Virus record (IMG/VR): IMGVR_UViG_3300021478_000019
Span: 32,001-96,000 of that record
DNA length: 64,000 nucleotides
Strand: one strand, 5' to 3'
Origin: a virus
Position 1 is the first letter of the stretch; the number at the start of each line of letters is the position of its first letter. The notes under the pieces are model-generated. The model searched no databases and was not told the DNA's origin. It worked only from the letters and a program-made list of their open reading frames with translations. This document shows, in pieces, positions 24,916 through 33,610 of the stretch. The position numbers and the translations under genes were made by a program.

Positions 24916-24928
24916 GTACCGTGTGGGC

Positions 24929-26365
24929 ATGAAGTCGAGGGAACAACGCCAGGCCGAAAGCGCCTACGAACTGCTATTCGGTATCTACGCCAGACAGTCC
25001 CTGACCAGGGGCGAAACCGAATCTCTGCCCGACCAGGTGGAGCGGGGTCGCAGGGCGGTGGCGAGGGAGGGCACCGCGGTGGTGGAGTTCATCGAGCCCC
25101 CGTCCACATCCGGCTCCAAGCATCGTGGTCTGAAGCGCCAGGAGTTCCCCAAGCTCGTAGAGATGGTGAGATCGGGGGAGATAAATGCGGTCTGGGCCCT
25201 CACCACTGCTCGCATCAGCCGAGGCGGGGGGCCCGGCTGGGCTCCGCTCCTCCAGGCTGCCATCGACATGGGCCTGGACCTCAACCGCTTCGTGATGATC
25301 AGGGATAAGTTCTTGGATGAATCCGCGCTCAACCGTAAGGCTGACGCTGACCGGGAGTTCGCTGAGCAGATGAGCGAATACAGCATCGACAATAAGGAGC
25401 GTGAGGCTCGGGACGGCAAGCCCTCTCCTGGTGGTCTGCGCCCGTTCGGTCGCAACAAGGACGGCCTCACTGAGCATAGGACCGAGGGCCCCATGGTGCG
25501 ACAGATGGGTCGGGAGGCTCTAGGCGGGCGCAAGCCTTACAGCTTCGCTGAGGAACTGAACAGGAAGGGGATCAAAAATACCGGTGGTGGCAAGTTCACA
25601 CCGGAGTCGGTTCGTCGTATTCTCGTCTCGCCCCGCACCGCCGGGTATCGAGAGATCGGTAGCGATCTCATCCCAATAATCGGATGCGAACCGTTGATTG
25701 AGCGGGAAGCCTGGAAGAGATTACGGGACATGCTGGAGACCAACAAGGAGTGGGACACCAGGCCCCGCCATCCGAAGACCTTTGAGTTGCACGGCTTCGT
25801 CTTCTGCGCTCTCTGCGGAAAGGGGCTCCGGGGCCGCTACAAGAGCAACACCAGTGATGAAGATCGCCGCTACTGCTGTCCTTCGGTCGCGCAGGGCGGT
25901 TGCAACAAGATCTCGGCCAGTGCGGCCCAGCTAGAACGAGAGATGGAGCGGAAGGTCATGGGTCAGCTGGCCGACCCCGCGTTTCGTCGAGGGCTGCTGG
26001 CCGGCCAGGAGGATCAGCCGAGTTCGGAACTGGAGGCCCTGAGCAAGGAGAAGGCAGCCCTCCAGACACAGCGCCTCGGGTTCATGGACCTGGCAGGCGT
26101 GTTCACCAAGGACGAGATCGCGGCCAAGGTGCGCCCGGTAGACCAGGCCATCAAGAAGATCGATCACCAGATGGGCACACTGCTGAGCGCCCGACATCAG
26201 TTGGCGATCAGCGTGGACCTCGACAACCTCCCTACCTGGGCAGAGGCGACCTTCGACCAGAAGCGTGACCTGATGCGTCTGGTGGTGAATCGGGTCGAGG
26301 TCGGTAAGTCGAAGACGAAGGGTCGCGCCTGGGACGCTTCCCGGTTGACTTGGCATCTTCGCTGA
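24929..26365 (+). CDS. int: Large serine recombinase (integrase)
   Basis: Catalytic IYARQS; recombinase domain PFG...A..LN..GI....G..F; zinc ribbon CALCG...YCC...C; coiled coil; TACCGT-N6-ATG. Confidence 0.93.
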   Translation: MKSREQRQAESAYELLFGIYARQSLTRGETESLPDQVERGRRAVAREGTAVVEFIEPPSTSGSKHRGLKRQEFPKLVEMVRSGEINAVWALTTARISRGGGPGWAPLLQAAIDMGLDLNRFVMIRDKFLDESALNRKADADREFAEQMSEYSIDNKEREARDGKPSPGGLRPFGRNKDGLTEHRTEGPMVRQMGREALGGRKPYSFAEELNRKGIKNTGGGKFTPESVRRILVSPRTAGYREIGSDLIPIIGCEPLIEREAWKRLRDMLETNKEWDTRPRHPKTFELHGFVFCALCGKGLRGRYKSNTSDEDRRYCCPSVAQGGCNKISASAAQLEREMERKVMGQLADPAFRRGLLAGQEDQPSSELEALSKEKAALQTQRLGFMDLAGVFTKDEIAAKVRPVDQAIKKIDHQMGTLLSARHQLAISVDLDNLPTWAEATFDQKRDLMRLVVNRVEVGKSKTKGRAWDASRLTWHLR

Positions 26366-26501
26366 TCCTGCTCAGCATGATCTGGGCCAGGACTCGACCG
26401 GCCTCATAGGCAAGCTCGTCGGACCACTCTGTCCCTTGCCGGGCTCTGATAGCTCTGACCTCGGCGGTCATCTCGTCCAGTTCTTCCCGGCTGTAGGGCA
26501 T
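26232..26501 (-). CDS. Small protein convergent with and overlapping the integrase 3' end
   Basis: TACCGT-N7-ATG leaderless arrangement; helical N-terminal half. Confidence 0.5.
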   Translation of the reverse strand: MPYSREELDEMTAEVRAIRARQGTEWSDELAYEAGRVLAQIMLSRISEDAKSTGKRPRRDPSSSTYRPRPDSPPDASGHASGRRSPLPR

Positions 26502-26570
26502 GGAGCCGACGGTACGAGCCGGCCTGGCGGCGCACCCCCTTGGCGCTGAAGTTCACCTAAATGGTCGTCC

Positions 26571-26602
26571 TGACTTGCACCCAACCTTCGGTGTGGTAGG
26601 GT
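26571..26602 (+). promoter_or_regulatory. Repeated promoter P12, with no downstream ORF
   Basis: TGAC-TTGCAC-N16-TAGGGT. Confidence 0.75.
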
Positions 26603-26608
26603 TTTGTC

Positions 26609-26680
26609 ACCGGGGATTGGAACCCTTCGGTGGTTGGTTGGTTGTGTCATCGTGAAGAGCCCCCTTCGGGGGGCTCTTCT
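26609..26680 (+). ncRNA. Predicted ~72-nt small RNA
   Basis: Starts at the P12 +1; weak 5' hairpin, G/U-rich unpaired core, ends in GAAGAGCCCCC-TTCG-GGGGGCTCTTC. Confidence 0.6.
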
Positions 26681-26757
26681 AGTTGTGGAGCCCCCTCCCC
26701 AGGGCGGGCGGGGAGGGAAGCTCCGAAGAGGGACGTGGTTGTTGTGACTACGTGCCC

Positions 26758-27453
26758 TCAGCAGCCATCGTAGGGTCTCCATGGCTGAGCGCCGTCCTTG
26801 GCGTACAGCTGCTGGAACGCCGCGTCCTGCTCCGACCGGGAGGCCGTCCAGGCGCTCCCAGACCGGCCCAGGCTGGCCCAGGTGCTGTTCAGGATCCCGT
26901 AAATGTTGCTGGACCCAGCACCGTTTGTCGACTCCCTGAAGGCCACACAGGACTGGAAGGAGCCCGGCGCCCCATATGACCGGGGCGCCGAGTACGACCT
27001 GCTCACCACAGGCGCCCGGACGGGTGTATAAGTCCTGGTAGGAGCCGTGTAGTAGTGGTGAACGGGAGGTGTACTGGCGGGGGCCGTGGGTAGAACAACA
27101 GGGGCCGGCACATAGCTGACAGGTGGGAGGGTGATGACCTGGCCCACCAGGATCAAGTTCGGATTGGGAACGTGGTTGTAGGAGGCCAGTTGTTCCCAGG
27201 TCCGGGCTGGGCGGGCTCGGGTGCCGATCAGCCAGAGGGAGTCTCCCGATCGCACGGTGACCCTCGGCATCGGCGCCTGGACCCGCAGCGCCGTGAGGAC
27301 GGCTCTCGGGGGCGAACCACTGGCCTGGGCCACATCTCCTACCGCTGGAAGGTGGCTACCGGGGCCTACCGGCGCCGCTGCTGCTGTCGCTGCGGATGCT
27401 GCAAAGGGAAGTGCGCCCGCTAGGGCGCACATGAGTAGGAACTTCTTCCTCAT
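26758..27453 (-). CDS. Secreted LysM plus Rpf-like lytic transglycosylase
   Basis: RBS AAGGAG; signal peptide; LysM VRSGDSLW.I...NPNLILVGQVITLP; C-terminal CV..RES...YG....TW...EQ...F..LY...G.QPW. Confidence 0.85.
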   Translation of the reverse strand: MRKKFLLMCALAGALPFAASAATAAAAPVGPGSHLPAVGDVAQASGSPPRAVLTALRVQAPMPRVTVRSGDSLWLIGTRARPARTWEQLASYNHVPNPNLILVGQVITLPPVSYVPAPVVLPTAPASTPPVHHYYTAPTRTYTPVRAPVVSRSYSAPRSYGAPGSFQSCVAFRESTNGAGSSNIYGILNSTWASLGRSGSAWTASRSEQDAAFQQLYAKDGAQPWRPYDGC

Positions 27454-27630
27454 GGGTCTCCTTGGTCTCGGGGGACTTGCGAGGGCTCTGACTACGAACC
27501 CTGGTCTGTGTCGAGGGGCGCGCTCCTTCCTGGCTAGGTGAAACAGTGGATCTGGCAACCTTAGTCGATGTACAGTTCCGAAAACCGGTCTGGGGAAGAG
27601 CAGTCTCCGAGTCAGGAAAGGGCGATTTTT

Positions 27631-28011
27631 ATGGCGAGACGCAGCGCTGCCGACACCCTCATCGAGGAGGCTGCCATCTTCCTGCGCTGCCGGGCCTATG
27701 GCCACAGCTGGGACGAATTTTTCCCCGACGACATGGAGCAGCCCTGGTACGGCTGGCGGCTGAGCCTGCGCTGCGTCCGCTGCGGCACGGAGCGCCATGA
27801 CAACATCGACTTCAAGGGCGCCATGATGAGCCGACGCTACATCCACCCGCTGGGCTACCTGACCCGTAAAGGCGACGCCAAACCGACCAGGACTGAGTTC
27901 CGTGAGGAGCTATTTATCAGCCTGCGTGCCAGACTGGAGAAGATCAACGCGGTGGGCGAAGACGCTGAGATCACGCCCATCAAGTCGGCCCGGAAAGCCA
28001 GGAGCGCATGA
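27631..28011 (+). CDS. Zinc-binding hypothetical protein
   Basis: CRAYGHSW...LRCVRCGTER.D...Y..P.GY. Confidence 0.75.
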   Translation: MARRSAADTLIEEAAIFLRCRAYGHSWDEFFPDDMEQPWYGWRLSLRCVRCGTERHDNIDFKGAMMSRRYIHPLGYLTRKGDAKPTRTEFREELFISLRARLEKINAVGEDAEITPIKSARKARSA

Positions 28012-28886
28012 CCACCCGTACCCGCACCCGCACCTCGACCAACGGCAAGGTGACCCACCGGGAGACGGTGGGCATCGAGGAGATCGACCCGGAGACGGCG
28101 CAGCGGTGGTTGGAGGGTAACGTCGATAACAGAGTCCTGCGGGAGTCTCGGGTCGTAAAGCTGGGTGGAATTCTTCAGCGGGACGAGTGGGAACTGACTG
28201 GCGACGCCATTGTTTTCGATGACCAGGACGTGCTGCTCAACGGCCAACACCGGCTGAGCGCCATCGTGGTCACCGGAATACCGGCCCGGCTCCTGGTCCT
28301 CCGGGGGGTCCCCTCCAAGGCACAGGAGGTCATGGATCAGGGGTTGAGCCGGAACTTGGGTGACCAGCTGCATCGCCGCGGCGTGTCCTACGCCTTCGTG
28401 ATCTCGGGGGGCCTGCACTGGCTGCACCAGATGCGCTACAACGAGGCCACCGGGGGCGCCCACTACGTGGACTCCGCGGAGCATCCCACCCTGCGCCAGC
28501 TGCTGGCCATCCATGAGGAGACCGCCCCCCACCTGGAGGAGTTGGCGCCCTCCATCAACAAGCTGCGCTACTACACCAAGGTCCGTCCGGGCCCCACCCT
28601 GGCCCTGCGCTACCGCCTGGGTCAGATCGACGAGACCGAGGCCCAGCTGTTCTTCGACTCCTGGCGGGAGGGCACCGGCCTGGCCAAGGATGACCCCATC
28701 TTCCGGCTACGGGAGTGGTGCATGGCTGACGCTCGCTTTCGCTCGACCAAGGGTCGGACGCCGGCCTACCGCTACGTGGCCTACGTACTGGTGGCCTGGA
28801 ACCGCTGGCGGGACCAGGTGCCCATGCGCCAGCTGACCTGGCACTTCACCCCCAGTCAGAAGGACCCATGGCCGACACCCCACTGA
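28008..28886 (+). CDS. ParB/Srx-like N-terminal domain protein
   Basis: P..A..WL..N..NR...W...G..I.FD....LLNGQHRL.AI. Confidence 0.75.
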   Translation: MTTRTRTRTSTNGKVTHRETVGIEEIDPETAQRWLEGNVDNRVLRESRVVKLGGILQRDEWELTGDAIVFDDQDVLLNGQHRLSAIVVTGIPARLLVLRGVPSKAQEVMDQGLSRNLGDQLHRRGVSYAFVISGGLHWLHQMRYNEATGGAHYVDSAEHPTLRQLLAIHEETAPHLEELAPSINKLRYYTKVRPGPTLALRYRLGQIDETEAQLFFDSWREGTGLAKDDPIFRLREWCMADARFRSTKGRTPAYRYVAYVLVAWNRWRDQVPMRQLTWHFTPSQKDPWPTPH

Positions 28887-29959
28887 CGTCTCGGCCCCGA
28901 GTGGGTAAGGCCCCTGGCGGGCGTCTGGCGAAAGGCACCGTCCCGCTCCCTGACGAAGTCGAGTCGCACCCGCGGGCCGGTAAGTGGAGTTGGGGTGGTG
29001 GTGACGGTGGTGACCCCTTCCTCCAGTCCCTGCGGCCCCAGGACGTGGCCCACCAGCGCCAGCAGCTGCTGCGCTGGTGGTCCCACCCCGGTGAGTGGCA
29101 GCACAAGTTCGCCCTCCATGGCCGGCGCAACATTCCCGGTTGGCTGGAGCATCCCGAACGGGAGGCCGAGGAGGTTCGCTGGTGGATGGAGGACACGTTC
29201 AGGAAGGCTGAGTTGTACTGGGTGAGCCCGGAGATGACCGACGTCATCACCACCCTGGCGCCCGGCATCCCCGACACCCTGCCCCAGCCTCCGGTGCCTC
29301 ACGCCCTGGTCATGTTCGCCAAGTCCATCCCTGGCACCGACGCCGAGGACGGCAGCAACATCTACACCTCGGCGTTCCTGTGGAGCGACATCGACCTGTA
29401 CAAGATCGGCCCTTGCATCGCTATGGAGAGCTACGCCTGGCGGGATTGGGTGGGCCTGTACCGGGGCCTCGACGACGAGGGCCAGCAGCTGTTCCGTGAG
29501 ATCTACCCCAACCGGCTCATGCCCACCGGGGGCTCGGAGTGGCCCATGGGTGCCCTGACCTCGGAGTTCGATACCGCCCCAGCTGAGGATGACCTGCAGA
29601 GGCAGTCCATGGTGGAGGACCGCCGGCTGCTGTCGACCTTCTGGGCCCTGGCCTCTCAGAAGATTGTGATCGAGTCTCGTCACCAGCCCTCTCGGGCAGA
29701 GCGGCGTGCCGCCCAGCGGGAGGGTCGTCCCCTCGACGAGGTTCGTGTGATCCGGCTGCGGGAACCCGCCACCCGCAGCCGCGGTGATGCTGGTTCGGAT
29801 GTGGAGTGGTCCCACCGGTGGATCGTCGGTAAACACTGGCGAAACCAGTGGTACCCCGCATCCGGCCAGCATCGCCCAAAGCTGATCGAGGCGTACCAGA
29901 AGGGCCCGGCTGACAAGCCTCTGGTGCTACGTGAGACAGTGCGAGCCTTGGTGCGGTAA
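28868..29959 (+). CDS. Phage protein of unknown function
   Basis: C-terminal HRWIV..HWRNQWYP...H....I..Y.KGP motif, recognised from other actinophages. Confidence 0.75.
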   Translation: MADTPLTSRPRVGKAPGGRLAKGTVPLPDEVESHPRAGKWSWGGGDGGDPFLQSLRPQDVAHQRQQLLRWWSHPGEWQHKFALHGRRNIPGWLEHPEREAEEVRWWMEDTFRKAELYWVSPEMTDVITTLAPGIPDTLPQPPVPHALVMFAKSIPGTDAEDGSNIYTSAFLWSDIDLYKIGPCIAMESYAWRDWVGLYRGLDDEGQQLFREIYPNRLMPTGGSEWPMGALTSEFDTAPAEDDLQRQSMVEDRRLLSTFWALASQKIVIESRHQPSRAERRAAQREGRPLDEVRVIRLREPATRSRGDAGSDVEWSHRWIVGKHWRNQWYPASGQHRPKLIEAYQKGPADKPLVLRETVRALVR

Positions 29960-29976
29960 TCAAGAAAAGGAGAGAA

Positions 29977-30249
29977 ATGACACTCGTATCCGAAGCCCAG
30001 GTTGACAACATCGAGGAAGGGAAGCTGCTGTTCGTAATTCTTGACAAGACTGGCGACACCAAGCACATCTGGGACCGCAGCAATCCCGACGAGGTGGCCG
30101 AGGCCCGTGCCCTGTTCACCCGCATGACCGGTGAGCGCAAGTTCCAGGCGTGGTCGGTCACCAGGAAGGGTGACAAGGATCAGCGCATCACCGAGTTCGA
30201 CCCCCAAGCTGAGAAGGTGATCTTCGCCCCGGCCCTGGTGGGCGGCTGA
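29977..30249 (+). CDS. Small protein ending in a C-terminal Gly-Gly
   Basis: RBS AAGGAG; GDTK.IWD...EV..AR..F...EFDP.AE......LVGG*. Confidence 0.8.
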   Translation: MTLVSEAQVDNIEEGKLLFVILDKTGDTKHIWDRSNPDEVAEARALFTRMTGERKFQAWSVTRKGDKDQRITEFDPQAEKVIFAPALVGG

Positions 30250-30869
30250 TGCCTCAGACCGGCTACTGGCCGCAGCAGTACTACAGCACCACCGCGGCCA
30301 CCATCAACTACACCCCGATCATCACCACCACAGCCATCAGCCCCAACACGATCTGGCAGAACTGGGTGAACACCTCGGCCACCACTATCACCTACGTTCC
30401 CACCTACTCCAACGAGGTGTGGCACAACTGGGCCAACCAGCTGAGCCAGTACGACTACCGGTACACGCTGCCGGCGCCGACGCCCGAAGCTATCCGTGAA
30501 GGCGAAGAGCGTTACGAGCGGCAGCGCCAGGAGCTACAGGCTGCCCGCACCCGTGCCCGTGTGCTGCTGGGCGAGTTCCTCAACGAGGGGCAGAAGACAG
30601 AGCTTGAGCGCCACGGTCGGTTCCATGTCACCGGGTCCAAGGGCCGGCGCTACTGCATCCGCACCAGCGGGCAGCAGGGCAACGTGGACCTGCTCACCGA
30701 CAAGGGCGACGTTCAGGCCACCTTGTGCGCCCACCCCCGTGGTGGCCTGCCTGACGGTGACGCCTGGCTGATGCAGCTGATTGAGATCCGTCATGACGAG
30801 GACCGTTTCCTGCACGTCGCCAACGTCCACCGTGGCCAGCTGCCTCGGGAGCTAGTCCGGGCGTACTGA
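30249..30869 (+). CDS. Protein translationally coupled to the Gly-Gly protein
   Basis: TGATG overlap; Thr/aromatic-rich N-terminus; LCAHP...LPDGD C-terminal domain. Confidence 0.8.
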   Translation: MPQTGYWPQQYYSTTAATINYTPIITTTAISPNTIWQNWVNTSATTITYVPTYSNEVWHNWANQLSQYDYRYTLPAPTPEAIREGEERYERQRQELQAARTRARVLLGEFLNEGQKTELERHGRFHVTGSKGRRYCIRTSGQQGNVDLLTDKGDVQATLCAHPRGGLPDGDAWLMQLIEIRHDEDRFLHVANVHRGQLPRELVRAY

Positions 30870-30875
30870 CCCATG

Positions 30876-30957
30876 GGAGGAATGCAGAGGGGTCGGCGTG
30901 TGGGATTGATCACCCACCACTAGCCAGCGAGGAACGGCTGGCACCCTCTGCATCTCC
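30876..30957. terminator. Multi-branched hairpin between convergent genes
   Basis: ATGCAGAGGG/CCCTCTGCAT outer stem enclosing two inner hairpins. Confidence 0.55.
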
Positions 30958-31175
30958 TATGGCTCGGTGGTACCGCCCAGCGCCGCTGCGATCTCGGACA
31001 CCTTGGCCTCGACCGCGGCCACCAGTTCGTCCACCTTGGCCTCGATGGCGGGCCGCACCTCGGCAGCGGCAGCCTGTACCGCGGTCTTGATTTCGGCAGC
31101 CTTGGCCTGGACGCTGTCGATCAGGGCCCGGAGATCTGCGGCGACGGGGTTATCAGCAGGGGGAGTATCAGTCAT
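30957..31175 (-). CDS. Small Ala-rich amphipathic helical protein
   Basis: Leaderless start below a degenerate promoter GAC-TTTCAC-N16-TAGCAT-N7-ATG. Confidence 0.65.
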   Translation of the reverse strand: MTDTPPADNPVAADLRALIDSVQAKAAEIKTAVQAAAAEVRPAIEAKVDELVAAVEAKVSEIAAALGGTTEP

Positions 31176-31204
31176 GATGTCGATGCTAATGCGGGAGGTC
31201 AACA

Positions 31205-31495
31205 GTGAAAGTCGAAGCCGTTCAATGCGACGCCAAGGGTTGCCCCAATATCGAGGTGCCCGAGGGGGCCGATCTGCCTTACGGCTGGTTGCTGGTGGAT
31301 ATCTACCAGGAGGGTGACGGCAACGTGGTGAACGGTGCCGTCTTTTGCTCCTGGGTCTGCTTGAGCGCCAACAGCCAGGCGCGCACCCCGGCGGCGCCGC
31401 TCAAGCGCAAGCGCCGCACCAGGGCCCAGATCGAGGCCGATGCGTTGGCTGCTACCCACGGCTCTGTCCCTGACCTGGAGATCCCCAGTGCCTGA
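31205..31495 (+). CDS. Small zinc-finger-like protein with a basic tail
   Basis: CD..GC...P.GW...FCSW.C; KRKRRTRAQIEA; RBS GGAGG. Confidence 0.7.
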   Translation: MKVEAVQCDAKGCPNIEVPEGADLPYGWLLVDIYQEGDGNVVNGAVFCSWVCLSANSQARTPAAPLKRKRRTRAQIEADALAATHGSVPDLEIPSA

Positions 31496-31661
31496 CGTAC
31501 CGGACAGCCTGGAGGCGTTCCCTCCGGTGTCTGAGCTAGGCGGCGCCATCGGGCGCACGGCCTCTCCAGCCTGCAAGCAGGGCCAGCATGACCTGTGCCA
31601 GGACGACAGCTGCCAGTGCCGCCATCATGAGCGGCTCTGGTACGACCGCGTCATCTCCTGA
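31488..31661 (+). CDS. Small Cys/His-rich protein
   Basis: SPAC..G.H..C....C.C.HH. Confidence 0.55.
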   Translation: MPDVPDSLEAFPPVSELGGAIGRTASPACKQGQHDLCQDDSCQCRHHERLWYDRVIS

Positions 31662-32134
31662 TGCACCAGGAGACCTTCAACCTGGTCTGCGTGATCTTGG
31701 AGGACTCAGCCGGCAAGGACGTCGAGGAGATCGCCGCCACCATCCTGCGAGATCTGGGCTTCCAGGGGGAGGAGATCCTCGACCACCTGGACCCGCCCAA
31801 GGGGATTGGGCGCTGGCTGGAGTCACACGGGCTGTCCCTGGTGGCCACCCATGAGGTGGCCCCACCGCAGGAGTGGGATGAGCTAGAACAAGAGGCCCAC
31901 CTGGAGGAGGCTCGACTTGAGGGGGGGACTCCCAAGGGAGAGATACCGTCACTCCAGGTGGGCGATTACGTAGAGTACAAGACCGCCCCACAGGGTCCGC
32001 GCAAGGTGTCTCAGCTGGGCTCGGGGGCGGTGGTGGAGGTCTCCGACCAGGGTGGGCTCATCGTGGTGCAGGGCAGCCCCCACGATGTGTACCTGCGCCC
32101 TGGTGACGGAGACACCATCAACGTGGTCCGCTAA
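31661..32134 (+). CDS. Hypothetical protein with an SH3-like C-terminus
   Basis: LQVGDYVEY.....G.G.VVEV. Confidence 0.65.
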   Translation: MHQETFNLVCVILEDSAGKDVEEIAATILRDLGFQGEEILDHLDPPKGIGRWLESHGLSLVATHEVAPPQEWDELEQEAHLEEARLEGGTPKGEIPSLQVGDYVEYKTAPQGPRKVSQLGSGAVVEVSDQGGLIVVQGSPHDVYLRPGDGDTINVVR

Positions 32135-33156
32135 CCCCGCCGTAGCCGGCGCCGCGGCTCAGCTGGGGGCTCGGGCACCTCGACGACGGACGGAACGGGC
32201 TGCTCGGGAGTCATGTTGAAGGCCACGCCCTCGACGGTTTTCCCCAGGTCTGTGAGAAAGCTGTCGAAAACGTCGGACATGCGGGCCACGAAGGTGTTGC
32301 CGAACCGGTCGAGGATGTCCTCCAGGCCGGCCCAGTCCGGGGCCACGATCACGTCGGTCTCCTCGACCACGGTGACGACCTCGGGCTCAGCTGGCTCCTC
32401 CTCGGGCTCCTCTGCAGCTTCCTCCTCGACCCCGCTCTGAGCAGCCAGGATGTCACTGACCATCTGCTCCCGGCTCTTGCGAGGAGGCAGGTTCAGGGTG
32501 GCAGCCACCTCCTTGAGCCGCAGCATGGACATCTCCTTCAGGTCGGTGCGGGAGTAGATGTCGCCGGCTTCGGCCTCCTCGGTCGCTTCCTCGGTGGCCT
32601 CGGGCCGGATGGCGGTGACGGTGGCCTCGACGGGCTCGGCGTCTTCGTCCCAGCCCATGGGGGTCAGGGCGTCGCTCAACTCGTAGACGGCGATCTCGTC
32701 GTCGAGGAACTGGCTGGAGATCCGCTCCATCTCGTCGTTGCGCTCGTCGTCCCACAGGATGAACAGGGCTGACTCGCTGGCCTCCTTCAGGATCTGCTCC
32801 ATCTGCAGTAGGGGGTTGTCGATGTTGTAGGTGCGGGAGGCGCTGTTGGCCACCTCGGTGAAGGTGCGCCGGGCCCGGTCGTCGGGCTTGGTGATCACCT
32901 CGTAGGGGATCTCAAATTCCTTGGCCGAGGCGGCGTAGTCGGCCAGGGTCTGGGTGAACTCGTCGGCGGTCAGCACGAAGACCCAGCGGACCTTGTCGTC
33001 CTTGGACACCTTGCCATCGATGAACTCCTCGATGAGGGTGGTGCCGTGTTCAACGTCCATGGCTCCGGTGCCGAAGAAGCCGATGGTCAGGGCTGGGGTG
33101 GATGCTCGGGCAGGCAATGGGGGGCTCCCTTCGTCAGTACCCCCCCATGCCAGCAA
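32131..33156 (-). CDS. Acidic protein with an alpha/beta N-terminal domain and a Rho-N/HeH-like motif; start probably near 33117
   Basis: TIGFFGTG; LKEMSMLRLKEVAATLNL....SREQMVSDIL. Confidence 0.7.
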   Translation of the reverse strand: MLAWGGTDEGSPPLPARASTPALTIGFFGTGAMDVEHGTTLIEEFIDGKVSKDDKVRWVFVLTADEFTQTLADYAASAKEFEIPYEVITKPDDRARRTFTEVANSASRTYNIDNPLLQMEQILKEASESALFILWDDERNDEMERISSQFLDDEIAVYELSDALTPMGWDEDAEPVEATVTAIRPEATEEATEEAEAGDIYSRTDLKEMSMLRLKEVAATLNLPPRKSREQMVSDILAAQSGVEEEAAEEPEEEPAEPEVVTVVEETDVIVAPDWAGLEDILDRFGNTFVARMSDVFDSFLTDLGKTVEGVAFNMTPEQPVPSVVEVPEPPAEPRRRLRRG

Positions 33157-33197
33157 AAGTCAGGAGCCACCTTGAGCCCGGCGCAGAAATAATCAGG

Positions 33198-33234
33198 AAA
33201 AAAATACGGTGCCCCTCTGGGGAAAGGGGCACCG
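33198..33234 (-). terminator. Intrinsic terminator
   Basis: 10-bp stem CGGTGCCCCT/AGGGGCACCG followed by TATTTTTTT. Confidence 0.85.
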
Positions 33235-33265
33235 CTTAATATCCAACGTCAGGATGGACGAGGTG

Positions 33266-33294
33266 ACTATAACCAAGGTACTGGCAACAAGCAA
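33266..33294 (-). promoter_or_regulatory. SigA-type promoter just upstream of the terminator
   Basis: TTGCTT-N17-TATAGT. Confidence 0.6.
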
Positions 33295-33298
33295 GCAC

Positions 33299-33610
33299 CT
33301 ATCTGGACCGACGACTTTGGGACCTGGTCATGACCGCGCTCACCATGTCGTCGCGGTGGGAGCGCAGCACGGTGTCGACGGCGTGGGCCAGGGCAGCCAT
33401 GCCAGCTGCGCCCAGGGCGACAAACGTCCTGGTAGTGGCACTATAGTGCGGAATCAGTAGTACCAATACGGCACAAACGACCAGGTTCACAAAGGATTTC
33501 ATCCAGGCCACCTGGTGCAGACCCACCCGGCTGGCCACCTCCTTGTACAGCTGCGTCAGCTTCATCGACCCCAGGCCGATGATCAGTACATACCCCAGTA
33601 CCGTCCCCAT
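33299..33610 (-). CDS. Membrane protein, possible holin
   Basis: About three hydrophobic segments and a basic C-terminus; last gene of the tail operon. Confidence 0.55.
   Translation of the reverse strand: MGTVLGYVLIIGLGSMKLTQLYKEVASRVGLHQVAWMKSFVNLVVCAVLVLLIPHYSATTRTFVALGAAGMAALAHAVDTVLRSHRDDMVSAVMTRSQSRRSR

Follow-up and report, generated by a model that had tools for sequence, protein, structure and literature searches.

What does a phage gain from a small protein that ends in two glycines and is encoded directly ahead of a cysteine-bearing partner? The question is raised by two overlapping genes at positions 29977–30869 of a 64,000 nt stretch of viral DNA (positions 32,001–96,000 of IMG/VR record IMGVR_UViG_3300021478_000019), the whole of which is referred to here as the window. 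Descriptions of bacterial ubiquitin-like conjugation, as in Bil, Bub and the Cap2 enzyme of cyclic oligonucleotide-based antiphage signalling systems (CBASS), have until now cast it as a means by which hosts defend themselves against phages. The pair considered here is a very common phage-side module with the outline of a ubiquitin system, comprising a Gly-Gly protein that appears beta-grasp-like and a cysteine protein of weakly UBC/RWD-like shape. Conservation, gene linkage and natural fusions are all observed, and the predicted complex, in which the Gly-Gly tail lies in a pocket of the partner, passes its controls. The reading favoured below is that the two proteins form a module of a ubiquitin-like protein (Ubl) and a protein resembling a ubiquitin-conjugating enzyme (E2), without an activating enzyme (E1), and that its nearest counterpart is the enzyme of E2-only CBASS; this is put forward tentatively, its chance falling a little short of even.

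The small gene (29977–30249, plus strand, as are all features of the pair) is an open reading frame of 90 amino acids whose product ends in FAPALVGG directly before the TGA stop codon at 30247–30249. The partner gene (30249–30869) opens with an ATG at 30249–30251 and encodes 206 amino acids, its start overlapping the stop of the small gene as TGATG. The two reading frames bear out the original prediction, made from the sequence alone, of a 90 amino acid protein ending in PALVGG-stop and overlapping the next gene by TGATG. Its description of the partner likewise agrees with the translation: D, E, K and R are absent from residues 1–55 of the N-terminus it called almost uncharged, its two W-x-N-W repeats are WQNW at residues 36–39 and WHNW at residues 58–61, and its LCAHP...LPDGD motif comprises LCAHP at residues 159–163 and LPDGD at residues 167–171. 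The coiled coil that it proposed corresponds to a long helix predicted by AlphaFold2 at residues 79–110.

The C-terminal tail of the small protein, P85-A-L-V-G-G90, is encoded at 30229–30246. Residues G89 and G90 are invariant in all 65 relatives recovered by a word-indexed protein search (alignment A1, which includes the window's own protein and spans 48–81 % identity to it), P85 is invariant in the same alignment, and the alignment ends at the second glycine. A stop codon directly follows GG in 18/18 small-ORF loci from IMG/VR, ten of which encode proteins only 38–53 % identical. A metagenome scan picked loci by the internal motif FDPxAEK, the tail not being used, and returned 80 loci with 64 unique small-protein cores; several of the contigs are IMG/VR loci already counted, and the samples overlap. 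Of these cores 55 end in GG-stop, 4 carry one residue after GG (R, R, I, M), 2 carry about 100 residues, 1 continues in an open frame to the contig end, 1 ends in AG and 1 belongs to a reading frame that runs off its contig, so that caps or extensions after GG are found in 7/64. Among loci ascertained through the partner, AG-stop is seen in L025 and L029 and GG-SR-stop in L027 and L031, and the annotated gene Rctr197k_113 (GenBank KX853510) ends in PG-stop. Judged from these alignments, the terminal GG is far beyond chance. The expectation that it would be invariant and terminal is borne out in nearly all relatives, with the exceptions being capped, extended or fused forms that keep Gly-Gly, and rare AG or PG ends.

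Several of the variant forms have features of their own. In L151 (2486–3022) and L152 (2486–3037) the small protein reads AAAMQGG and then continues for about 100 residues, an extension that has no Pfam family; the partner domain lies about 670–700 nt further on. P0279, a small-protein relative on one 1,430-base metagenome contig, has an Acb2/Tad1 hairpin domain directly after Gly-Gly (PF24729, E 8.2e-19, 68 bits against a cut-off of 27), a domain that forms part of phage sponges for CBASS and Thoeris signals; this arrangement was seen in a single protein. At L042 (1321–1575; GenBank KX853510, Virus Rctr197k), Rctr197k_113 contains part of an additional beta-grasp repeat; less than 2 kb upstream of the pair, that record annotates a CRISPR repeat region and a transposase-like gene.

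Linkage of the two genes is nearly constant. The partner lies directly downstream of the small gene in 17/17 testable IMG/VR loci (L003 was excluded because its contig ends too soon, and the L013 partner, missed by BLAST at 1e-5, was recovered by phmmer). In the metagenomes the partner domain is found downstream in 52/54 testable unique loci, with 10 further loci having no room for it. A scan starting from the partner (subfamily alignment A5) gave 20 loci, 2 of them at contig edges and 3 on contigs already seen; a small-protein homologue is present just upstream in 18/18 testable loci. At 15 of the 18 the small gene is adjacent, at L036 and L038 it is fused in frame as Ubl-GG-partner, and at L033 two tandem partner paralogues follow. 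A second, different in-frame Ubl-GG-partner fusion is P0281, of 359 amino acids; it comes from a search for longer relatives in which only the 7,993 candidates sharing most words were scored, giving 6 matches at low power. No third gene family is common to three or more of the 24 distant loci, which are those outside the window's close relatives among 31 non-redundant loci, beyond the pair itself and its antisense shadows. Thus the module consists of exactly two genes, and their adjacency, whose conservation was one of the checks proposed with the original prediction, holds even where there is no other common neighbour.

The module is widespread as well as minimal. With a profile built from 18 diverse sequences and searched against 1.84 billion cluster representatives, the C-terminal domain of the partner was found in at least 10,492 clusters (50 % identity) at E≤1e-3 and in 6,312 at E≤1e-10, and in most of the 150 matches listed it lies at the C-terminal end of proteins of 170–230 amino acids. 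The G+C content of the locus DNA ranges from 34 to 63 %. In a protein atlas, the nearest clusters of the small protein are 82–85 % viral. Among 50,697 phage records, the small protein matched only two uncultured records, and tblastn of three partner proteins gave no match. A pattern search of genome contigs returned one metagenome-assembled genome with small-protein patterns and none with the partner pattern. Neither protein gave more than sub-threshold noise against Pfam, PHROGs, NCBIfam and PADLOC.

The partner, which has 63 close relatives, falls into three parts. Its N-terminal region (residues 1–78; 30249–30482) is rich in T, S, N, W and Y and is modelled with low confidence, the AlphaFold2 predicted local distance difference test (pLDDT) being below 50 for residues 1–31, 36–39 and 41–52, whereas residues 79–206 are modelled confidently. 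The first W-x-x-W motif (WQNW) is encoded at 30354–30365 and the second (WHNW), whose W58 and W61 are near-invariant in partner alignment A2, at 30420–30431. Family-wide, the N-termini contain 18.7 % T, 10.8 % S, 7.3 % W and only 0.4 % K. In 133 of them W-x-x-W occurs 267 times, compared with 4–8 times for each of the other W–W spacings between 0 and 6. Partners carry 2.0 motifs on average, versus 0.32 in shuffled sequences, and 115/133 have at least one. The N-termini thus appear alike in style and not in sequence. Residues 79–122 (30483–30614) form charged helices in the model (79–110 and 113–122, pLDDT 83–97), and residues 123–206 (30615–30866) form the conserved alpha/beta domain, identified by profile search and structure comparison, with four predicted strands, a loop at Cys160 and helices.

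Conservation within this domain was counted in two sets, one of 162 partners (148 top representatives, the window and 13 locus sequences) and a less biased one of 53 unique partners found through their small-protein neighbour. Cys160 (codon 30726–30728) and Asp171 (codon 30759–30761) are present in 162/162 and 53/53. Asn145 and Gln176 are likewise present in 162/162, and in 47/53 and 50/53, respectively; Pro168 is found in 161/162 and 50/53, Ala191 in 161/162 and 51/53, and Asn192 in 158/162 and 52/53. The original prediction had proposed a Cys-His-Asp partner. Its Cys and Asp are the invariant residues Cys160 and Asp171, but its His162 is replaced in 15/162 and 11/53 partners, and no other His is invariant. 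The triad as proposed therefore fails, and the variation at His162 suggests that the partner is not a classical Cys-His peptidase.

Prediction of the complex points to a direct interaction. Partner residues 76–206 (71-row alignment) were modelled with the small protein (65-row alignment), and three runs gave values of the interface score ipSAE of 0.80, 0.80 and 0.78, against 0.00 for the best of three controls. At least 94 % of the contacts agree between runs, and the pLDDT of the partner is at least 79. In the calibration of the tool, its mark was reached by 58/80 solved complexes and 2/110 mismatched pairs, figures that are approximate here, own alignments having been used. The predicted interface comprises residues 20, 22–27, 59–70 (in part), 82 and 84–90 of the small protein, and residues 95–110 (in part), 143–144, 160–168, 171, 174–176, 178–183, 187 and 190–192 of the partner. 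It takes in 8 of the 11 invariant columns of the small protein and A103, C160, P168, D171, Q176, A191 and N192 of the partner; Asn145 is not among the residues listed. The lowest expected error in the model is that between partner residue 171 and small-protein residue 22. The tail (residues 84–90) is placed against the Cys160–Pro168 loop, which answers in part the check proposed with the original prediction, whether the GG tail reaches the Cys; the output is at the level of residues, with no atom-level Gly90–Cys160 distance. The model supports binding of the two proteins to each other.

The small protein is probably a diverged beta-grasp protein of the MoaD/ubiquitin type. In its AlphaFold2 model (65-row alignment, pLDDT 80.5) the order b-b-a-b-b-b comes after a disordered N-terminus, and its Foldseek list from the PDB is almost wholly ubiquitin-like (FAT10, NEDD8, SMT3/SUMO, ISG15 and a bacterial Ubl), with E values of 0.011–0.09 and template modelling scores of 0.29–0.44. 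With VIA-align, an exhaustive aligner independent of Foldseek that cautions that Z below 8 may reflect merely a common arrangement, beta-grasp domains reached Z up to 4.7 and MoaD chains Z 3.3–3.6. No match to the Pfam ThiS model was found at E≤0.1. Profile–profile comparison was carried out against 30 ThiS-family sequences from planctomycete genomes, 13 of them MoaD-like. In hhalign, an alignment of 20 diverse small proteins (A6) matched the 13 MoaD-like sequences with 62.5 % probability (P 7.3e-5) over 46 columns through the terminal GG, against 0.2 % (P 0.37) for the reversed control. The close relatives alone (A1) gave 8.1 % (P 0.0042), a comparison with the ThiS-type sequences alone gave 0.1 %, and the positive control of MoaD-like against ThiS-like sequences gave 97.7 % (P 1.8e-12).

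Matches of the small-protein profile to designer pentatricopeptide proteins in the PDB were rejected, as their score sums repeats of one short helix, with '0 stretches'. The names 'pentatricopeptide repeat protein' and 'metallophosphoesterase superfamily enzyme' carried by relatives in the source data (JGI) are artefacts that probably share this origin, which the search shows for the former: one short helix matches designer pentatricopeptide repeats many times over.

The fold of the partner is less easily placed. A search of the PDB with the domain profile found nothing, and Foldseek with the model gave nothing at E≤0.001, the best match having an E of 0.18 and the RWD-type C-terminal domain of Mad1 an E of 0.34. 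In VIA-align the RWD domain of RWDD2 ranked top (Z 5.1, 108 residues aligned), with Ubc9 at 4.7 and the GCN2 RWD domain at 4.6 and 4.3; lower rows include FANCL, UEV domains, E2S, Ubc13-Mms2 and the CBASS CdnG-E2 (3.0). About 14 of the 50 rows belong to the UBC/RWD/UEV superfold, all with Z below 8. The predicted order of elements fits that superfold: helices lead into a meander of four strands, and the cysteine opens a loop that is followed by further helices. In the AlphaFold2 model the invariant Cys160 ends the strand 155–160, in agreement with the conserved catalytic cysteine that E2s have in the loop after strand 4. Among 58 members of the partner family searched at E≤1, E2, RWD and UEV are not among the best 25 of the 61 families found. 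Prok-E2_B was represented by a single sequence among 301 genomes.

In the BFVD database, the viral models closest to that of the partner are two UniProt entries without names (E 9.1e-6 and 7e-3) and, at E 8e-3, an uncharacterised protein from Agrobacterium phage Atu_ph07, a jumbo phage that could prove to be a cultivable carrier of the module. Some partner homologues differ in architecture. Those at L011 (6254–7441) and L012 (6433–7542) are about 370–396 amino acids long, with an extra part N-terminal of the W-x-x-W region that contains paired cysteine motifs, C-x-G-A-G ... C-x-x-C, and may be a zinc ribbon. At L033 (2377–4315), on a 436 kb viral record (G004), the two tandem partner paralogues come after a single small GG protein; the first of them has no W-x-x-W arm and has an additional C-terminal part.

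The original prediction recognised no E1/ThiF, E2 or JAB gene in the window, and this extends to the whole record, which is 117,510 bases long and 100 % complete by CheckV. Hidden Markov model (HMM) searches of this complete genome for ThiF (E≤0.001) and for Prok-JAB, JAB, Prok-E2_A and Prok-E2_B (E≤0.1) gave 0 matches. UQ_con also gave 0 matches at E≤0.1, yet it gave 0/14 in control genomes as well, so that this part of the search is uninformative. Five other large pair-carrying records (56–100 % complete) were searched with ThiF and Prok-JAB; four have neither, and in the fifth, G004, the two lie side by side about 190 kb from the pair.

Taken in this setting, E2-like, cysteine-based handling of the terminal glycine is ranked first because the invariant Gly, Cys and Asp, the caps, extensions and fusions, and the absence of E1 and JAB resemble E2-only CBASS. 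We infer the class of each fold, whatever covalent chemistry there may be and the way in which uncapped forms would be activated. The two genes would constitute a self-contained phage module, in which the small protein would be a beta-grasp protein of the MoaD/ubiquitin type whose P-x-x-x-G-G tail docks in a pocket of the C-terminal alpha/beta domain of the partner. This pocket would be lined by the invariant Cys160 and Asp171 and the nearly invariant Asn145, Gln176 and Asn192. Cys160 would act on the carbonyl of the terminal glycine and carry the small protein as a thioester in the manner of an E2. In capped, extended and fused lineages it may also be the peptidase that exposes Gly-Gly, both jobs being done by the E2 of E2-CBASS. 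The Thr/Ser/Trp-rich W-x-x-W region and the long helix may recruit a target or localise the complex. For uncapped forms, the activation energy might come from a host adenylase of the ThiF/MoeB type; otherwise there would be no covalent step. Since the genes around the module are early or auxiliary ones and not those of the virion, its target would more probably be a protein of the host or of the replication stage. A bolder version, which we consider unlikely, is that the pair is a two-gene tagging device without an E1 of its own. Here the partner, part E2 and part peptidase, would capture the glycine, either from a capped or fused precursor or by way of a hijacked host adenylase of the MoeB/ThiF type, and transfer the small protein to host or phage proteins selected by the W-x-x-W arm, for example to disable ubiquitin-like or cGAS-type immunity.

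A number of observations weigh against an E2-like module. One concerns energy: a free Gly carboxylate forms no thioester unaided in the absence of an E1, and about nine in ten of the small proteins end in free Gly-Gly, with no peptide bond to pay for the thioester. Neither ThiF nor JAB is present in this complete genome or in 4/5 of the other large records. For this reason (no unaided thioester from a free carboxylate) the 'minimal conjugation system' of the original prediction stays an inference. The resemblance of the partner to E2 enzymes is also imperfect. The window's partner has no match to the Pfam E2, RWD and UEV models at E≤0.1, with only a sub-threshold match to DUF6894. Classical E2s have an HPN motif 8–10 residues before the cysteine; the partner has none, and reads GNVDLL...LCAHP, with Asn145 15 residues before Cys160 and H-P after it. 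Cys160 lies at the end of strand 4, as opposed to 8–10 residues after it in E2s. His162 is kept in only 147/162 and 42/53 partners and is a Tyr in the fused protein of L036. For both models a Foldseek match at E≤0.001 is absent and VIA-align Z values are at most 5.1, under the caution line of that tool. The Gly90–Cys160 pair is not among the 25 most confident contacts of the complex model. Lastly, 2 metagenome loci with at least 500 nt of downstream room have no partner match, and co-divergence of the two proteins (Mantel mirror-tree test) is r 0.00 among 18 distant pairs, with 964/2000 permutations as high; the r of 0.75 over all 26 pairs gives no support, since it reflects only the split between close and distant pairs.

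Much of this evidence would also be accommodated by an obligate non-covalent heterodimer, in which the slim Gly-Gly tail plugs the partner's pocket or acts as a handle there, like the tail of MoaD, which inserts into a pocket of MoaE, or like ubiquitin on non-catalytic UBC-like domains. The small protein would then be a regulator, inhibitor or chaperone of the partner, and the exact GG-stop could mark the split of an ancestral self-processing fusion into two genes. No energy source for covalent chemistry is encoded, the best structural matches of the partner are non-catalytic RWD domains, overlapping stop and start codons suit equimolar complexes, in-frame fusions exist, the His of the partner is not conserved, and the complex model that passes its controls is silent on chemistry. 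Against this, invariant Cys, Asp and terminal Gly at 28–34 % identity are more typical of catalysis than of packing, and the GG+1, GG+SR and fused forms imply a cut after Gly-Gly, unless the tail needs no free end to function. On balance the non-covalent heterodimer is judged somewhat unlikely, though it is a serious rival to the favoured reading. A role in counter-defence is distinctly improbable. The Ubl, alone or with its partner, would act as a decoy that is taken up by, or blocks, the host E1 or E2 of type II CBASS (Cap2), Bil or Bub, systems that work on a C-terminal Gly. Such a role would suit the Acb2/Tad1 anti-CBASS/anti-Thoeris sponge module directly after Gly-Gly in P0279, the neighbours at distant loci that are of a kind accompanying anti-defence genes (ParB-methyltransferase, MazG and a cytidyltransferase with Nudix) and the location of the window's pair, whose plus-strand block has the integrase on one side and the minus-strand tail genes on the other. 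However, P0279 is a single protein on one 1,430-base contig, no Acb2/Tad1 domain above cut-off is present in this genome or the 5 other large records, and neither protein matches PADLOC models. A decoy would also leave the invariant Cys and constant presence of the partner unexplained, and the 34–63 % G+C range of the phages is wider than one defence system would suggest.

Two further explanations concern the glycines themselves. As a sulfur carrier, a small protein of the MoaD/ThiS type would be adenylated and thiocarboxylated by host MoeB/ThiF, and the partner Cys would transfer the sulfur to a phage-specific substrate. The sole sequence-profile link of the small protein is MoaD-like, with the hhalign match running through the terminal GG, MoaD chains appear in VIA-align, and tails of the PPxxGG type are common in the small-protein family. 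But that hhalign probability is modest and just 8.1 % with A1, neither Foldseek nor VIA-align likens the partner to a MoaE, ThiG or rhodanese chain, no sulfur-metabolism gene recurs nearby, and capped and fused forms would be unusual for such carriers; this role is thus highly improbable. The terminal GG could also be a by-product of nucleotide constraint, with GGNGG serving as the ribosome-binding site of the partner, or of chance. Gly codons do stand just before the partner start in many loci, and some read GGAGG or GGTGG. However, both third positions vary among all four bases (in the 18 IMG/VR loci the first codon is GGG, GGT, GGC or GGA and the second GGC, GGT, GGG or GGA), and GG is kept at L012 and L043, whose partner starts about 200–270 nt away, at L033, where a further gene lies between, and within in-frame fusions. 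It is therefore the protein that is constrained, not a ribosome-binding site; the upstream P-x-x-x of the tail is also conserved as protein, and an origin in nucleotide constraint or chance can hardly be credited. The E2-like module remains the reading preferred here.

The surroundings of the pair vary between loci. In the window, a Shine-Dalgarno-like AAGGAGAG site read from the sequence (29967–29974, plus strand) lies 2 nt before the ATG of the small gene at 29977. Further upstream are a serine integrase gene (24923–26365) and a LysM/transglycosylase gene on the minus strand (26761–27474), and downstream a minus-strand block with a Tail_P2_I-type protein starts at 33610. A promoter and terminator scan of 26000–33500 gave a result no better than shuffled sequence. 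Two genes immediately upstream, 28008–28886 (phrog_5931, unknown function, E 1.6e-46) and 28868–29959 (phrog_15934, unknown function, E 9.1e-28), are syntenic with the pair in close relatives only; the product of the former has an NGQHR motif, which may be ParB-nuclease-like. At ten distant loci, 11 of 20 larger neighbouring genes matched PHROGs (E≤1e-5), nine with a named function. Seven of these belong to nucleotide metabolism or are auxiliary (a Cas4-like nuclease, MazG, RNA ligase, ParB-methyltransferase, nucleotidyltransferase, cytidyltransferase with Nudix and transposase), the other two being a lipoprotein and a virion structural protein; the two remaining matches are to an ATPase-related family of unknown function. 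With neighbour families mostly non-structural, the module appears to travel with non-structural genes.

A soil metatranscriptome library contains a 146 nt piece identical to 30617–30762, within the partner gene, and a 73-base piece identical to 30928–31000, in the minus-strand gene downstream of the partner, each with 0 differences; the remaining pieces from public runs that match the locus are short or diverged. By this identity the soil sample holds this phage or a near twin. The identical pieces do not establish transcription, because DNA may occur in such libraries.

The module is unusually widespread and unusually minimal, and has no model match in four family libraries. If Cys160 truly handles the terminal glycine, the pair would represent a second known E1-independent route after E2-CBASS, and would offer a small, tractable system for ubiquitin-type chemistry without ATP-dependent activation and for the study of what phages tag. 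Should the tagging-device version be true, protein tagging would be a weapon that viruses use widely in bacteria. A complex that proved purely non-covalent would still represent a large unnamed family of protein pairs deserving a name and a structure.

Among known systems, the nearest published phage case is the tail-assembly Ubl of lambda and T1 with its JAB peptidase (PMC1779556). There, tail assembly protein I, a ThiS/MoaD-like domain with a conserved C-terminal Gly, likewise lies beside a putative processing enzyme, protein K, which combines a JAB metallopeptidase with NlpC/P60. Unlike the pair described here, the I and K genes lie in a tail-assembly cluster, and the Ubl has a further domain after it (PMC1779556). 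The pair has no JAB and no tail-assembly context, its partner is of another kind and its neighbours are non-structural at most loci. A full-text literature search, which did not cover supplementary family lists, found no description of a phage-encoded Gly-Gly beta-grasp protein paired with such a cysteine protein. As the pair appears to do, Bil, Bub/6E and type II CBASS with Cap2 and Cap3 combine a beta-grasp protein ending in Gly with an adjacent E2-like protein that bears a cysteine; however, their operons are reported always to have a ThiF-type E1 and usually JAB (PMC1779556), whereas the phage genome has neither. The phage proteins also match none of the Pfam or PADLOC models of those systems.

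Likeness to MoaD/ThiS (PF02597) extends to size, the predicted beta-grasp order, the ...PPxxGG-type end and the weak profile match of 62.5 %. In contrast, the small protein has no ThiS HMM match, the partner is not MoaE-like, and E1 and sulfur-metabolism genes are not linked. The partner domain was also compared with DUF7737 (PF24879). Against 12 such sequences from planctomycete genomes hhalign gave probabilities of 60.0 % (A4) and 53.7 % (162-sequence alignment), with P of about 1e-4, compared with 0.1–0.2 % (P 0.26–0.46) for reversed controls, and the motifs GN(I/V), C-x-x-P and LP-x-x-D are in register, so that remote homology is plausible at the level of sequence. The DUF7737 HMM gave 0 matches in this genome even at E≤10, and the family is not among the best 25 of 61 for the 58 partner members, one of which touches DUF4132 (E 0.0048). 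DUF7737 differs in being the C-terminal domain of large bacterial DUF4132 proteins, where it ends open frames of 223–1657 amino acids. Its Cys and Asn are not invariant, the Cys missing in 4/12 sequences, and we know of no small GG gene adjoining it.

The closest parallel in chemistry would be E2-only (type II short) CBASS. In the reports on that system, the stand-alone E2 is a cysteine protease that removes a single residue after the terminal Gly of the CD-NTase, with His87 essential for this activity, and holds that glycine as a thioester or isopeptide without ATP or an E1; natural CD-NTase–E2 fusions also exist (10.1101/2022.05.25.493364; PMC12948482). As so described, the two systems differ in several respects. 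The CBASS substrate is a cGAS-like enzyme and that of the phage pair a beta-grasp-like protein; the former is a bacterial defence and the latter a phage module; the CBASS E2 is recognisably UBC-like and needs its His, whereas the phage partner has no family match and its His162 varies; and most of the phage small proteins are uncapped. On the same description, both are two-part systems without an E1 or JAB, and in both a tail that ends in Gly enters a small domain that carries a cysteine, an E2-type domain in CBASS and, in the complex model of the phage pair, one that may be of that type. Both also include natural fusions, of substrate and E2 in CBASS and of Ubl and partner in the phage family, and both show a single-residue cap after the glycine, which in CBASS is removed by the E2 itself.

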